Shown: piece after piece, positions 9,001-18,000 of the stretch
Layout of the letters: each line of letters opens with the position of its first letter
Position numbering within the stretch: position 1 is the first letter of the stretch
Source of the DNA: Bdellovibrionota bacterium
Lineage (GTDB): Bacteria > Bdellovibrionota_C > UBA2361 > JBIKWN01
Direction of reading: 5' to 3'
Assembly: GCA_044356295.1 (NCBI GenBank)
Contig: JBIKWN010000002.1
Span: 1 to 64,000, forward strand
Length of the DNA stretch: 64,000 nucleotides
Position numbers: made by a program

Positions 9001-12000
9001 GAAGTTATAGTAAAGAGTGGAATCGATGTTCTTAATCATAATATTGAGACGATCCCACGAATGTATAAAAAAGTCCGACCAGGAGCAGGTTATATTCGTT
9101 CCCTCACTCTTCTAAGTACTGCTAAAGAATATAATCCGAATATTTTCACAAAATCAGGCGTTATGGTTGGTCTTGGAGAAGAAAAAGAAGAGATCTTCCA
9201 AGTCATGGATGATATGAGACATCATAACATAGATATTATGACTATTGGACAATACCTGCGCCCTAGTAATCGACAATTACCGGTGCGTGCATTTGTTACC
9301 CCCGATGAATTTAAAGAATTTGAAACTGTTGGACTTTCAAAAGGATTTAAGTTTGTTGAATCGGGTGCTTTGGTTCGAAGCTCGTACCATGCTTGGAAGC
9401 ATACTGAAGGAGCTGCAGCAGCAGCATAATATATAGTGAGGTGGTTTTTTCGACGCACCCGATCTCCCCTGTCACTATTCTTTCTATCTCTTTCTTTAGG
9501 TATCTTCATAGGACTATTTATTAGTTTTGAAGATTGGACTGCAAGAAAGTTGATGGGGCTTCTTGCTGACGAAATCAAAATTGGCACCGACGGATGTACC
9601 CTGCGATATGATTCTGCTCAATTCTCAATCTTGAGAATGCATGCTGTAACAAAGAATGTAGATGTTATATGCGAAGATAAAAAGAAAACTCGAGATAATG
9701 AATCTGTCGCTATGCACTTTGATGAGATCTCATTACAAGCAGGGCTTCGAAAAATATTATCTCTCGTTATTACCTTTGATGATCTGCGGCTCAAGCATGG
9801 TTATACAAATGGCGTCGCTCCTAAAAGTGCCACGTATAAATTTATAGATTATCTGTCTCAACCAGTTTCTCCTGAAAGAGAGAAGCAAACACGACTTCGA
9901 CTGGAGTTAGTAAAGCTCACTGTTGAAGATTCAAAAATCTATGAATCCTTGGGGAAAAATTTGCTTTACGGTGAAGGTTTTACGCTTGGTGTCACCTATA
10001 ACGAGAATCGAGACGTTATTCTAGCTCCTGCGATTGAAAAGCTTTCGTATATTATAAGAGGAAATAATCAAAGTACTATTCCACTCGGATCATCTGTGTC
10101 AGATGTTCAAATTACAGATGATAAAACTATTTTTCATAGTGCAACGTTAGGAGATAAAAAAGAGATCTCCCTCCACGGTGATGAAACAATCCATAAAGAT
10201 AAAAGTCTTCAAGGAGAAGGAACCCTACAATTCGCTCTTACCTATCTAGGACTACCTGACTGGCTTGCCGCTTCTGTTGTTGGAAAATTTGATGTATCTG
10301 GCGAATTAGGAAGTCCTATTCTCAAAGGTGCATTTCAACTCAACCAAGATACTGTTGCAAAAGTACTGCCCGGTGCTGTCGAAGTTATTACATTCGATAA
10401 ACTTTCTTCTGAATTTGTCGTTGATGTTAATGATGGAGATCCTATCGTTACACTCCCAGCGCTTACAGGATCAAGTCAAGGATCTACACTTGAAACAGTT
10501 ATTCCTGTGAAAATTGAACAGGGAAATATCTCTGGGAAGTTAAAACTCTTTGCTGGCAATATTACTGTTGGGCCAGTCTCTTGGAACAACGTTCAATCAA
10601 CTCTCAGTTTATCTGGGCCACTTTCTGAAATCAAAAGTGATTTTGTCGGTACAGTAGAAACAACTGAAACACTTGGCGCAACAATTCGTAATATTAATTT
10701 TTCTGCACATAGTGAAGAGGGTGTATTTGATGTAAAGGCTAACCACAGAGCAGGGCAAAAAGGATTAGTAAATCTTGCTGCAAAAATTCACGTTTCGACA
10801 AACGAGGCTCTTGTTGAATCATCAGATTTTACAATATCAGATTATCCTGTTGCTGCACTCTACAATGAGTCAGTAACGGTCGAGCAAGAAAATGTATTGC
10901 GCTTAACTGGTACAGGCAAAGCGTCAGGACCATTCGATCCTTCACGAATGAGACTTAATGCTGTCTCGAAAGGGACATCAACTGTTATTCCTCTACAAAA
11001 AAATTCACAGATTAAACTCGATATTGCTCTTGGAGATTTGAAGCTCAATGTTAACGATCCAGATAAACTTTTTATCTCCGACCTTGTTCTTGGACTGACG
11101 AATGAAAAAAATACGGGGAAACTAAATATTCAATTTAAAACTCATAATCAATCACCTTTTACGATGTTTGATTGTTCAGATAGTAGTGGTGGAATTAATT
11201 ACACCTATCCACGACAAGATTTTTTTGGAGGCGATGGCACTATCAATCTTGGATCTCTTTCACTCGGCTGTAATCCTGTTGCTCTTTCACTGGCAGCACC
11301 GAGTGCACTTCCGATAAAAAAAGGGGCAATTCAATTAAGTAATTTAAAATTACTTGCACTTTCCAATCCTCTTTCATTTACCGGTTCACTTGAGCCAATG
11401 AAACAGTTGGCTTTTACAATCAAAGGAATGCTGCCACTGCAAACTGTTGAACCCCTGCTCCCATCAATCGATGAGCTATCTGGCACTGCGGTAGTAAACC
11501 TTTCAGTTGGTGGAAGTCTTTTCTCACCTGAATTTTCTGGTAATGCCGATCTGAAAGATGGTTTGTTAGCATTTGAGCGAAGTCAGCTCCTCTTAGAGAA
11601 TATCAAAGGTTCACTCCTCTTTTCTAATACCGGAATTACTTTCCAAAATATAAATGGTGCAATCAATGGTGGAACCCTTGCTCTGAACGGGGCCGTATTT
11701 CCGCTTAATCCTGATTTTTCAACAGTTTCAGCAACTATACGTGGAGCCGCTTTTTCACCGACTTCAGGCTTTTCTTTTTTAAGCGATGCCGATTTATCTC
11801 TTCAAAATCAAAATGAAAAACCAGTTGTTTCTGGTACCGTTGGGATCACAAGCGCAGACTTTGAAAAAAAACTTGATCTCATTACATTTGCACGTGAAGT
11901 CACTAGCCTTCTGTTTACTTCTAAGAATCCTAATGCAACAAGCGGGCTCAGTAATACAACTTCAAGTGCTTCAAAATATGATCTTCCTTTAGATATTAAA

Positions 12001-15000: not shown

Positions 15001-18000
15001 CTGAATATATTTATGGATGCAGGAAATGTTTTCCTCAATTCATTTGATCCGAAATCCAATGCCGTTCCGGATCTTATTCTAAGAGAAGACGACACTTTTT
15101 TAAGATACTCTACTGGTGTAGGACTTCGCTTTCTATCTCCTATTGGTCCAATTGGTCTTGATTTGGGGATTCCTATCAACGGTCGCGAAGAAGATGCTCC
15201 TTGGAGACTTCATTTTAATATTGGGTCAAATTTTTAGTGTTAAGAACGATCGAATCGAGAAGAACCAAATAACTCTTCAAGTCTTGCATATCGTGATCGG
15301 AAACTATCAATGTATTCAGATCTTACCATACCTGCCCATCCATCATCGTTAATCATACGTGCTACAAGAGGGATAGAATCACGAACAGCGTGTCGTGCTT
15401 TAAAATAACTCGCATTATTAGCAGCCTCATCTACAAATTTGCTTGCTGCAAAAATAAAATCTGAAGGAAACAGTGGGCTATCGGGAGCTCTTTCTGAAAG
15501 CGCAGTTAAATACTCTAGCGAGTATTGTGCAAGCGATGCAGTAAGTCGATGTTGCCGAATAGCGTACATCTCATTAAACCATTGGCTCTTAAAAGCATCA
15601 GTTAACACCATCGGTCCAAATTTTGCGTACATAAAGTCTTCGACAATATTTTCTATATACGGTGAACCTTTTTCTAGGGATGAGGAAAGACCTTTAAGTG
15701 CACTTGTTGGAGTGATAGCCCAAGATAGGTCTCGACCTTTTCGGTCGACATTAGAATTGTGCGTTGCAAAAACTACGGATACAGCCACGGCTGAGATTAT
15801 ATTTAAAAAAAAGGGAATTTCAAGAGAAAAGAGTCTCTGAAAAAAACTAAGCCCCGCTCGCTTCTTTGCGAACTTCAACTATTTTTTTCTGAGCGCCTTG
15901 AGGCATTGTACACGAACCATTGAAGGTACATCCCTCGTCCATCACAAGAACTGGGGTGACTACTTCACCGATCAGTTGTCCACCATCTTTGATTTCGACA
16001 CGTTCAGAGGCCTTGATGACACCCTTTACCGTTCCTCGAATAACAAGTGAAGCAACTTCAACTGCAGCATCAATAGATCCAGATTTCCCAACGTGAAGAG
16101 CTTTGGAAGAGAAGATTTCCCCACTCAATTTACCGTCTATACTCACAGGAGCATCAAAACTTAATTTACCATGGATTACGGTTCCAGGACCTAAAGCAGA
16201 CCTGATCTTTGTGTCTTCATGATTAACAATAGGTGTAGCTAATGGAGCGGATGATGTGCTTGAAAAGCCAGTGCTGGGTCGGTTGAGAGCTGTACCTATG
16301 GGCTGAGGAGCTTCTTTTCCAATATTTGGTACTGGAGAAGGACTCGTAACTCCAGAATTACCCCCAGTTGAAAAACTGAAAGCAGCCTGATTTTTCTTAT
16401 TTTCTTCGTCTTTTTTACCCCAAAATGCCATTAGGCAAGTATATGCCTATGAAAAAAAAATTTCCACCATTATTAAAGGACAGGCTGCATCTAAAAGGAA
16501 TATTGGATAAAAATTTAACTAATTTAAAGTTTGAGAATTGTTGAGTCTCTATCTGGTTGATACCATAAGATATTTTATGCTCATCTTGCGACGTCCCAGC
16601 CTACTCCTTAGCTCATTGTTGCTTCTCCTTATAGCGACATTACCAACCCATGCTGCGCAACCTGAAACAATTCGTAAAAAAAACAGTACGTCAAAAGTAT
16701 ATAAAGTAGTTGGAAAGAAAAAACCTACTAATAAAAAAGTCTCTAAAAAGGCTCCCTCATACTCTAAAGTAAGTTGGAAAAAACAACGTGGTAAAAAATA
16801 TCAACCATCTGTTACTCTTCCTAACCCTCGAATAAAATTAGATCCACAATTTATTAAATCGGTTACTTCCCCAACAGATCATAATATTGAAAAAATTGAG
16901 CTATCAAAAATCAACTCCGACCTAGCCATGCTTGCGAAAGCACCAGAGTTCTCCTCCTCGTACAGAGGTAAAGTCGCTGCGATTACGAAGAGCCATGATT
17001 TTATACAGTTCTCTGTAGACATTGATCTTCAAGAATACGCCAAACAAGTTCTTGAAAAAGTTCCAGCTCCTCATGTTGCTTTAGTTGCGATGGAACCAAA
17101 GTCCGGTCGTATCCTTGCTATCGCAGGTAAATCACTCACTTTAAAAGATGCAACTACTCATGCAGGATTTCCCGCAGCTTCTCTTATTAAAGTTATCACA
17201 TCAACTGCTGCAATTGAGCACGGCGGAGCACAACCAAACGCTGAAATATTTTTCAGAGGTGGTACTTATGAGCTCAGTCCAAATAATTACAATTCTAATC
17301 CCCGTGCTGATAGAAAAAGTATGACAATGACTGAAGCCCTCGGTCGTTCATGTAATCCAGTTTTCTCGAGAGTTGGATTGAAGTATCTAAACCCAGCTCT
17401 TCTGCGTGCTGAAACTGCTCAATTTGGATTCAATAGCGATCTAGGCTTACAGATGCCTCTTCAAATATCTACTGCAACAATTCCAAACGATGACTTTGAA
17501 TTTGGGAGAACTTCTGCAGGATTTGGTGATATTTATCTGAGCCCAGTCCATGCCGCAGTAATTGCATCAGCGATTGCAAATCAAGGAAGACTACCGCAAC
17601 CATCAATTATTGACCAAGTAATCTCTGAAGATGGAGACATACGGTATCAATTCGAACCACAACTATTAAAACAAGCGACTCCTCCATCCGTTGCAAACCA
17701 AGTGCTTCATATGATGACTGCTACCACAACCATTGGCACATCGCGTAAAGAGTTCCTTGGCAAAGTGCCATGGGAAGTCGCAGGGAAAACTGGCACGTTA
17801 AAAGGAGATAATCCAAAGGGACTTAACAATTGGTTTATAGGAGCAGCCCCTTTAGAAAATCCAAGGATTGCTGTTGCAGTAATCGTTATTAATCCTTCAC
17901 AGGTATCATCTAAAGCGTCTCACATAGGAAGGCTTATATTAGAGCGCTACTTGGGTTAAACTACCCAAGATATGATCGCTAACGTAGCACTCTACAACAC

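Follow-up and report, generated by a model that had tools for sequence, protein, structure and literature searches.

A single gene of a Bdellovibrionota bacterium (assembly GCA_044356295.1) encodes both partners of a TAM (translocation-and-assembly module), namely a TamB-type bridge and a POTRA-bearing Omp85 barrel, in one polypeptide. In the analyzed window, the first 64,000 nucleotides of contig JBIKWN010000002.1, ORF listing and translation revealed one open frame at 9436..15237 of the forward strand, with 1,933 codons, a stop codon and no internal stop. Along the chain, an N-terminal membrane helix is followed by a TamB-type bridge with a terminal DUF490 domain, six POTRA domains and a 16-strand Omp85 barrel. 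The fusion is a real, conserved gene, and it is a variant of the known TamA-TamB system. It is probably best explained as a conserved single-chain TAM that arose by in-place gene fusion and works as proposed below. The features of the locus are as follows (residues are counted from the GTG codon at 9436).

8527..9429, forward strand: lipoyl synthase gene (lipA), directly upstream and serving as a synteny marker
9436..15237, forward strand: whole fused gene, a single frame from GTG
9436..9438, forward strand: proposed true start GTG, the sole ATG, GTG or TTG codon 5' of the hydrophobic helix
9466..9585, forward strand: N-terminal helix, residues 11-50, with a hydrophobic core at 11-31 (hydropathy; AF2)
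9553..9555, forward strand: called ATG, residue 40, start of the 1,894-aa database version
9598..12315, forward strand: TamB-type beta-sheet bridge (beta-taco), residues ~55-960 (AF2 models; Foldseek)
11647..12684, forward strand: Pfam TamB/DUF490 (PF04357), residues 738-1083, 87 bits against a cut-off of 22.4
12328..12480, forward strand: three short helices, residues 965-1015 (AF2, model residues 231-281; partly of low confidence, with pLDDT <50 over model residues 243-271)
12490..12738, forward strand: six C-terminal TamB beta-strands, residues 1019-1101, the last at 1090-1101 (AF2, model residues 285-367; complex prediction)
12739..12756, forward strand: junction of ~6 residues (QQKKFV) from the last TamB strand to POTRA1 strand 1 (alignments, AF2, hydropathy)
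12751..14181, forward strand: six POTRA domains, residues 1106-1582 (six beta-alpha-alpha-beta-beta units in AF2, model residues 372-848; Pfam POTRA, 93 bits)
14188..15234, forward strand: 16-strand Omp85 barrel, residues 1585-1933 (AF2, Pfam Omp85, Foldseek)
14881..14892, forward strand: VRGY motif, residues 1816-1819 (alignment A1: R1083 and G1084 invariant)
15205..15234, forward strand: C-terminal strand ending in HFNIGSNF (F1199 of alignment A1 is nearly invariant)

The start codon requires revision. The public database copy of the protein has 1,894 aa, the length also given in the first-pass annotation, and the Atlas sequence begins at residue 40. Residues 11-31 form the only 19-residue window with hydropathy above 2.0 in the whole protein (mean Kyte-Doolittle 2.29), and since this only strongly hydrophobic segment lies upstream of ATG 9553, a start at that codon is very probably wrong. 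GTG 9436, located 6 nt past the lipA stop codon (9427-9429) in the same frame, is almost certainly the true start of a 1,933-aa protein, and the called ATG is probably internal. In the 72%-identical relative G002 the N-terminal residues upstream of the ATG are conserved at the protein level, and all 41 of 41 extracted fused homologues have a basic stretch and a hydrophobic helix at the matching N-terminal site. By its sequence, the segment 11-31 is a predicted inner-membrane signal-anchor. The proposal that the protein spans the envelope depends on this anchor helix, which the GTG start supplies and the public 1,894-aa gene call loses. The domain coordinates of the first-pass annotation are identical to our Pfam coordinates after a shift of 39 residues, and its central observation stands, with a TamB part and a POTRA/Omp85 part marked by Pfam domains on one stop-free frame.

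The AF2 model of residues 1-760 (pLDDT 86.1) consists of a helix at 11-50 followed by an uninterrupted array of strands, which continues in the model of residues 735-1933. Such an N-terminal helix and long beta groove with a chorein-like start, by which TamB/AsmA-like proteins are recognized, is obtained only with the GTG 9436 start. Foldseek matched the bridge with probability 1.00, at low TM-scores, to LPD-3 (9cap) and an N-terminal fragment of Vps13 (6cbc), both of them bridge-like lipid-transfer proteins. DUF490 at residues 738-1083 scored 93 bits in the genome scan. The N-terminal part had no match to Pfam AsmA/TamB_N at E<0.01, although relatives do have one, and the TamB equivalog NF047952 scored 21.8 bits against a cut-off of 825; the TamB protein of a split relative is likewise below that cut-off (31 bits). 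This half is a distant member of the TamB family and not the proteobacterial equivalog. The three short helices at 965-1015 may correspond to the amphipathic helix described for E. coli DUF490 (PMC13119328).

The second half combines POTRA domains, a 16-strand barrel and a loop-6 VRG(Y/F) motif, as in the Omp85 superfamily. The best stretch for Pfam POTRA is 1512-1582, POTRA_2 matches 1109-1168, and Pfam Omp85 covers residues 1638-1933 with 162 bits. We take VRGY to be the loop 6 motif of Omp85 proteins, and the terminal Phe is typical of an outer-membrane-protein beta-signal. BamA has five POTRA domains. The first-pass annotation described this half as a complete TamA, which does not agree with the six modelled POTRA domains, compared to three in E. 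coli TamA (PMC13119328), or with the profile scores: the BamA equivalog TIGR03303 (258.8 bits in three stretches, cut-off 297.15) outscores the TamA equivalog NF047950 (131.9 bits, cut-off 625), both being below their cut-offs. The Omp85 protein of a split relative reaches 400 bits on the BamA model, above the cut-off. In Foldseek, the best matches of the barrel half are BamA chains (3.5e-40), and TamA 8us1 aligns with a TM-score of 0.75 on target length. The barrel half is a six-POTRA paralogue of BamA type that serves as the partner of TamB. The claim that this is the only TAM in the genome (128 contigs, 93.6% complete) was borne out, DUF490 of the fused protein being the sole TamB-family match and BamA being encoded separately on contig C124 (TIGR03303, 618 bits against a cut-off of 297). 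A third Omp85 match, on contig C28, was rejected as a TamA candidate, as it is a patatin-POTRA-Omp85 protein.

In the cryo-EM structure of E. coli TamAB, six TamB strands lie in the membrane and strand 1 of TamA binds the C-terminal TamB strand (PMC13119328, 2026). The AF2 model of residues 735-1933 (pLDDT 78.7, pTM 0.66) comprises six strands, six POTRA domains and a 16-strand barrel. When residues 962-1101 and 1102-1933 were predicted as a complex, the score was 0.70 and the best control 0.00; of 157 solved complexes 116 attain this mark, as do 2 of 215 mismatched pairs, a calibration that is only rough here because a custom alignment served as input, and the pass may owe to likeness with solved TamAB structures (9xdc is among the matches). 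At least 61% of contacts were common to the runs, with partner pLDDT of at least 52 (53-55). In the predicted complex the six C-terminal TamB strands touch the barrel, and the lowest-error contacts join residues 1585-1595 (barrel strand 1) with 1090-1098 (last TamB strand) in antiparallel register. The last TamB strand (1090-1101) is thereby predicted to form an antiparallel pair with barrel strand 1 and so an intramolecular hybrid barrel. This strand (AVEVNSTVTLLA) fits the G-x-x-hydrophobic-x-aromatic pattern more poorly than does the order consensus (..DLxYT). The complex prediction gave no confident contact for POTRA1-5, and where POTRA1 would sit with respect to the barrel is deduced from linker length.

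The preference of the barrel half for the BamA model, the split relative above the BamA cut-off, the retained VRGY motif and six POTRA domains, and the BamA chains among structural matches would also suit a second BamA-type insertase for outer-membrane proteins with the TamB half as an accessory, instead of a lipid bridge that uses its barrel mostly as an anchor; in Borreliella, TamB is described as binding the POTRA domains of BamA (PMC11361582). We nevertheless regard an insertase as the main function as unlikely, since the attached strand, if it pairs with barrel strand 1 as predicted, would fill the seam that BamA uses for templating client strands, and the genome encodes a separate full BamA. 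An accessory role of TamB resembles the pairing of BamA with TamB in Borrelia, or the classical view of TAM as a system for autotransporter assembly, and the insertase and lipid-bridge roles are not mutually exclusive.

The alignment of the junction is gap-free across the order and in the outside genomes G042 and G031. The linker residues are poorly conserved across the order (consensus 'LSxxxxxxxI'), as expected of an exposed loop, and in the fused forms from family f35 and from Acidobacteriota the linker is basic and, at 8-21 residues, longer. Both observations could be accommodated by a single precursor that is processed in the periplasm by a cut close to the junction, so that the working parts are separate and the fusion serves only co-expression and co-targeting. 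This we consider quite improbable: the junction shows neither a conserved cleavage motif nor a hydrophobic segment of the signal-peptidase type (the 12-residue hydropathy maximum across residues 1085-1130 is 1.4, and no signal peptide was detected there), and in the order a linker of ~6 residues between strands, with local pLDDT of 70-83, would leave little room for a protease. Cleavage would be feasible in that the freed Omp85 half is already periplasmic, though nothing points to it.

As an uncleaved single chain, the protein is proposed to work as follows. The N-terminal helix (11-31) would escape cleavage and remain in the inner membrane as a signal-anchor, and a lipid bridge made of ~1,000 residues of beta-taco groove would cross the periplasm. 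The six C-terminal TamB strands would dock at the seam of the C-terminal barrel of the same chain, the final one lying antiparallel to barrel strand 1 in the predicted hybrid barrel. The chain would enter POTRA1 ~6 residues past this strand, so that the six-POTRA arm would be fixed by both ends to the barrel's periplasmic side. The barrel would be folded by the separate BamA through its Phe-ending C-terminal strand. By analogy with E. coli, a role in lipid transport is likely; the job would be phospholipid movement to the outer membrane and its maintenance, as is now favoured for TamAB, with the covalent link setting 1:1 stoichiometry and permanent contact of bridge and barrel. If the hybrid barrel is real, its seam is permanently occupied and the POTRA arm makes a closed loop beneath the barrel, with each end tethered. 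The protein would then be a rare single chain integrated in both membranes, its barrel being folded by BAM while the N-terminus remains in the inner membrane.

Within the order UBA2361, 85 of the 91 genomes (21 families, 28-35% identity) have a single frame that spans the junction, and the remaining six yielded no split tamB/tamA-like pair. No fused gene was found with the queries used in one order member, G020 (92% complete), and the module may thus be dispensable. An artefact, either misassembly or a stop codon lost from a decaying gene pair, might be suspected in an assembly fragmented into 128 contigs, but is effectively refuted by the recurrence of the stop-free frame in these 85 genomes at ~30% identity with a gap-free junction, by the conserved functional residues of both halves, and by their uniform composition (GC 0.388 and 0.378, GC3 0.251 and 0.233). 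The fusion had been considered a trait of the order, which holds for almost all order genomes but is too narrow, as fused genes also occur in four of 33 same-class genomes outside it (G042, G060, G069 and G031; G042 has a split pair in addition) and in Acidobacteriota (Bryobacterales, Ca. Saccharicenans/Aminicenantes and one further MAG). In most other genomes of the class tamB and a tamA-like gene are adjacent, as first reported, with tamB coming first.

In the ten split loci read, tamB is followed by an abutting or overlapping Omp85 frame, whose product has a signal-peptide-like N-terminus that is missing from the fused forms. Radical-SAM/LIAS or LipB domains are encoded directly 5' of split tamB in three sister genomes checked (G039, G046, G062) and of the fused gene in G060. 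The location of lipA upstream of both the fused gene and split tamB argues for fusion in place, and the gene looks like the product of joining two neighbouring genes, tamB first and the tamA-like Omp85 gene second. The event would have removed the tamB stop codon, the C-terminal tail of TamB and the signal peptide of the barrel protein.

An AU test rejects one shared origin for the fused forms as a whole: when their TamB parts were constrained to a single clade, p was 5.2e-5 and the lnL difference 189, and the Acidobacteriota fused proteins group in the tree with acidobacterial and alphaproteobacterial split TamB. The recurrence of this natural fusion across unrelated bacteria suggests that bridge and barrel operate as a permanent unit. 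More tentatively, TamB and barrel may have been welded repeatedly, and in these lineages, if the hybrid barrel is real, the barrel would be a fixed outer-membrane socket and lipid exit and not a cycling insertase, a possibility that we raise without favouring it. Under that joint reading, welding would have taken place once or twice in the phylum and again, at least once, in Acidobacteriota, with the last DUF490 strand joined almost directly to POTRA1 in each case.

We found no description of a natural TamB-Omp85 fusion in the literature. In E. coli, tamA is the first gene. The fused protein shares with E. coli TamA-TamB an inner-membrane-anchored TamB with a beta-taco and C-terminal DUF490, and a POTRA-bearing 16-strand Omp85 partner; its last TamB strand is predicted to pair with barrel strand 1, as reported there from cryo-EM (PMC13119328). 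It differs in being one polypeptide instead of two, in having tamB before Omp85, in six POTRA domains instead of three, in the barrel half without a signal peptide, and in a TamB part of ~1,100 aa, with the NCBI TamA/TamB equivalog cut-offs not reached. Gene order and a many-POTRA BamA-like partner are shared with the Bdellovibrio/Myxococcus-type operon bd2494-bd2495, in which bd2495 is reported to have seven POTRA domains (PMC3983030), and with the split pairs of sister lineages in the phylum, which, as judged from domain offsets, probably have 6-7 POTRA domains and, in several cases, have lipA upstream; these retain the stop codon, TamB tail and Omp85 signal peptide that are gone here. The Borreliella system likewise pairs TamB with a BamA-like partner and not with a proteobacterial TamA, but that partner is described as the only BamA of the cell and a separate protein (PMC5582053, PMC11361582), whereas the present partner is a dedicated paralogue, joined covalently to TamB, with BamA encoded elsewhere. 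[quoted passage not shown]

The fusions bear on two live questions, whether TAM acts mainly in protein insertion or as a bridge for phospholipid, and whether the TamA-TamB hybrid barrel is transient or permanent. As Rosetta-stone evidence, they show that a TamB-barrel unit of 1:1 stoichiometry that does not dissociate is viable and was selected more than once, and that the TamB C-terminus can lie within a few residues of the POTRA arm's N-terminus. The genes are ready single-chain constructs for structural work and for complementation of E. coli tamB/yhdP. The Acidobacteriota proteins, for which no paper was found (MCC6367852.1, Bryobacterales, 2,240 aa; RFT15518.1, Ca. Saccharicenans, 2,110 aa; MEM9553972.1, 1,999 aa), have the same domain order, with the last DUF490 strand, a short basic linker (8-16 residues) and POTRA1 without a signal peptide, but differ in ~25% identity, a longer TamB part (1,270-1,509 aa) and separate origin. 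They are named only generically, RFT15518.1 being annotated as 'adenylate cyclase', and this and other database names ('outer membrane protein insertion porin family', 'YaeT') conceal the fused architecture.

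The fused gene (window 9436..15237, plus strand) is a single ORF of 1,933 aa counted from GTG, with no internal stop. TamB, POTRA, and Omp85 do lie on one ORF, as the first-pass annotation had proposed, and its Pfam coordinates hold with a shift of 39 residues. The length of 1,894 aa given there, shared by the public database copy of the protein (P0002), is counted from the called ATG at 9553 and has to be revised, as it omits the helix at residues 11-31 encoded upstream of that codon; the ESM Atlas sequence begins at residue 40. We think that ATG 9553 is the wrong start, because residues 11-31 form the sole strongly hydrophobic 19-residue window in the whole protein, GTG 9436 is the sole ATG, GTG, or TTG before this window, the region is conserved in a relative with 72% identity (genome G002), and a basic stretch followed by a hydrophobic helix precedes the conserved LLxxE..SCxC motif in 41 of 41 extracted fused homologues. 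Devoid of this helix, the fused protein has no inner-membrane anchor. The stop codon TAA of lipA (window 9427-9429) is in frame with the GTG of the fused gene, at a distance of two codons only (window 9427-9438).

Predicted anatomy of the fused protein (residues counted from GTG 9436; gene on the plus strand)
Residues 738-1083: TamB/DUF490 domain (Pfam)
N-terminal part of residues 735-1933: further beta-taco (AF2 model)
After the beta-taco and before residue 1019: three short helices, confidence partly low (AF2 model)
Residues 1019-1101: six strands (AF2 model)
Residues 1106-1582: six POTRA units, beta-alpha-alpha-beta-beta (AF2 model)
Residues 1109-1168 and 1512-1582: POTRA matches (Pfam)
Residues 1585-1929: 16-strand barrel (AF2 model)
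Residues 1638-1933: Omp85 domain (Pfam)
Residue 1816: VRGY motif in the barrel (sequence)
C-terminus of the barrel: protein end ...HFNIGSNF (sequence)

The AF2 model of residues 1-760, built on a 41-row alignment (pLDDT 86.1), contains a helix at 11-50 and, after it, an uninterrupted strand array. Foldseek matched it with probability 1.00 to two bridge-like lipid-transfer proteins, LPD-3 (9cap) and the N-terminal fragment of Vps13 (6cbc), with low TM-scores, as expected for long rods. The model of residues 735-1933 (pLDDT 78.7, pTM 0.66) is, by Foldseek, most similar to BamA chains (3.5e-40), with TamA near (8us1, TM 0.75 on target length). The best 60 of 86 matches in a profile search of solved structures include BamA and TamA chains and no TamB chain.

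The barrel half scores below the cut-offs of both the NCBI BamA model (259 bits, cut-off 297) and the TamA equivalog (132 bits, cut-off 625). Thus, the "complete TamA" of the first-pass annotation stands as a POTRA/Omp85 half but not as TamA, in view of this score and of its six POTRA domains, and is more aptly described as a six-POTRA, BamA-like paralogue partnering TamB. Passages of PMC3983030 describe a BamA-like, many-POTRA Omp85 paralogue beside tamB in Bdellovibrio, Bacteriovorax, and Myxococcus. The view that the genome has only this TAM and a separate BamA was confirmed: the fused gene is the sole TamB-family match in the genome (93.6% complete), and the genuine BamA (618 bits) is encoded on contig C124. 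The third Omp85 member is a patatin-POTRA-Omp85 protein of the PlpD type (753 aa, G000:C28:1985-4246; L003 1213-3474, minus strand). The Pfam AsmA profile had no match in the genome, and the sole match of the YhdP and DUF748 profiles, N-terminal and below the cut-off, is a short AsmA-like protein of 561 aa (G000:C23; L136 361-2046, minus strand). Judged from these profiles, the fused protein is the sole long bridge found in the genome, though not the sole AsmA-like gene, because the 561-aa protein is another AsmA-like candidate.

At the junction, the alignment is gap-free across the order UBA2361 and in two fused proteins from outside it (G042 and G031). The last DUF490 strand occupies residues 1090-1101, AVEVNSTVTLLA (order consensus ..DLxYT.L), and about six residues separate it from POTRA1 strand 1 (FVDISV). 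In split TamB proteins, a further 10-25 residues lie between this strand and the stop, and their Omp85 partners start with a signal-peptide-like hydrophobic N-terminus, which is absent from all fused forms; in the protein studied here, no hydrophobic segment was detected by hydropathy at residues 1085-1130. The two proteins of family f35 (G060 and G069) retain 21 extra residues alignable to the split TamB tail. Lipoyl synthase or LipB domains are encoded immediately upstream of the split tamB in G039, G046, and G062, and the fused genes of the window and of G060 have such domains in the same position; therefore the fused gene sits at the ancestral tamB-Omp85 locus. The simplest history consistent with this gene order would be a fusion of the tamB and Omp85 genes in place. 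The upstream genes here are E2 acyltransferase and lipA, which rules out an upstream TPR gene like that of the Bdellovibrio operon. A bactofilin gene (15847-16431, minus strand) and a penicillin-binding transpeptidase gene (16538-17959, plus strand) lie just downstream.

The complex prediction for residues 962-1101 against 1102-1933 yielded a score of 0.70 (best control 0.00), a value reached by 116 of the 157 solved complexes and 2 of the 215 mismatched pairs, a calibration that is rough here since our own alignment was used. At least 61% of the contacts were common to the runs, and the partner pLDDT was at least 52. The lowest-error contacts pair residues 1585-1595 with 1090-1098 in antiparallel register, and others follow the wall of the barrel and reach its last strand. 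The predicted strand pairing is like the hybrid barrel seen by cryo-EM in E. coli TamAB, for which passages of PMC13119328 report that TamB attaches through its C-terminal beta-signal strand to strand 1 of TamA, with six TamB strands lying in the membrane. The passing score shows likeness and may in part derive from the TamAB structures already solved (e.g. 9xdc).

Provided that this pairing is correct, the last TamB strand would end at the periplasmic face beside the start of barrel strand 1, and the six-POTRA arm would be tethered at both ends, because POTRA1 begins within six residues of that strand. The N-terminal helix would presumably serve as an uncleaved anchor, with the rest of the protein exported through Sec and the barrel folded by the separate BamA. 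The probable function, carried over from E. coli, is phospholipid supply and outer-membrane upkeep.

We analyzed the distribution of the fusion in 124 genomes of the phylum, all of the same class or closer (91 in the order, the window's own included, and 33 outside). A stop-free single frame crosses the junction (profile positions about 357-368) in 85 of the 91 order genomes. The remaining six, none of which has a split pair, comprise G001 (no match, 62% complete), G121 (a BamA-like row only among those listed, 76% complete), three with fragments at contig ends (G113, G086, and G122), and G020. In the latter (1.8 Mb, 92% complete), the search found a BamA-like match but neither a fused nor a split TAM, and the module may have been lost in this small genome. 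Outside the order, the Omp85-part match begins afresh at the junction in 24 of 33 genomes, in frames of 655-1,010 aa; in G050 and G059, the parts are divided between frames or contigs, and G068, G033, G052, and G054 have BamA-like matches only or matches not assignable to fused or split forms. Ten split loci read directly consist of a tamB frame (1,102-1,387 aa) and an abutting or overlapping same-strand Omp85 frame (869-1,010 aa). Junction-spanning frames occur in four of the 33 (G042 on contig C3, G060, G069, and G031), which on direct reading encode 1,883, 1,881, 1,881, and 1,675 aa, three of the four having both domains by Pfam. Hence, the fusion is a trait of the order, as proposed in the first pass, but not of the order alone, being found in these genomes and in Acidobacteriota. 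Word-indexed protein searches with the junction and with DUF490 returned only 5 and 11 close relatives and were uninformative on the wider distribution.

Some ESM Atlas clusters combine TamB, POTRA, and Omp85 in a single protein; the few taxa recorded for these clusters are Acidobacteriota. Their members include proteins from Bryobacterales (MCC6367852.1, 2,240 aa), an Acidobacteriota MAG (MEM9553972.1), and Ca. Saccharicenans/Aminicenantes, e.g. RFT15518.1 (P0127, UniRef100_A0A3E2BLA8; 2,110 aa), publicly named "Adenylate cyclase", evidently a misannotation. A profile search gave five proteins of 1,777-2,111 aa with the domain order TamB, POTRA, Omp85. The Acidobacterial junctions are of the same kind: the last strand, a basic linker of 8-16 residues, and POTRA1.

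The TamB-part tree contained 19 of the 41 fused proteins, 10 split, 5 Acidobacterial fused, and 10 other split TamB; all trees are quick LG+G4 trees with several long branches, and groups were named after the trees were seen. The fused proteins of the order type come out as a single clade (SH-aLRT 100), f35 falls within the phylum's split clade (SH-aLRT 100), and the Acidobacterial fused proteins group with Acidobacterial and alphaproteobacterial split TamB. A single clade of all fused rows was rejected (TamB part, AU p 5.2e-5, lnL difference 189), and these trees point to a minimum of two independent fusions and possibly to four. Within the phylum, there may have been one event or two, with f35 shared or separate: f35 is placed among split forms in both the within-phylum and outgroup trees and retains its 21 residues, whereas one clade of the phylum's fused rows was borderline with outgroups (AU p 0.049) and not rejected without them (AU p 0.585 and 0.748 for the Omp85 and TamB parts, respectively). 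G042 has both a fused gene (C3:4262-9847) and a split tamB/Omp85 pair (C2:706069-710582). The Omp85 tree places its fused copy within the order's clade (SH-aLRT 93), the TamB tree outside it; the double set could reflect either transfer of the fused copy from the order or retained paralogues.

The fused gene is a real feature and a variant of the known TAM system that we have not found described before. It comes closest to E. coli TamAB, to the split tamB-Omp85 operons of Bdellovibrio-type bacteria, and to the unstudied Acidobacterial fusions. In the full-text literature searched, with subscription journals and supplements outside its scope, no natural fusion of TamB to Omp85 was found described; the words "fusion" and "fused" occur nowhere in the text of the main evolutionary survey of TAM (PMC4494059), and PMC12419801 has TamB in its reference list only. 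The architecture is already visible in public databases, under generic or wrong names. An analogue from another family is the long MlaD of Veillonella, which according to passages of PMC10665443 combines an inner-membrane anchor with a C-terminal outer-membrane barrel. That such covalent fusions have recurred speaks for a bridge-barrel unit with permanent 1:1 pairing.

Finally, a 1,151-aa ORF with MFS_1, Acyltransferase, and AMP-binding domains (window 19980-23435, plus strand) lies downstream of the fused TAM, at a distance of 5 kb. It probably joins a lysophospholipid transporter to an Aas-type acyltransferase/acyl-ACP synthetase and would then be a second fused envelope-lipid gene.
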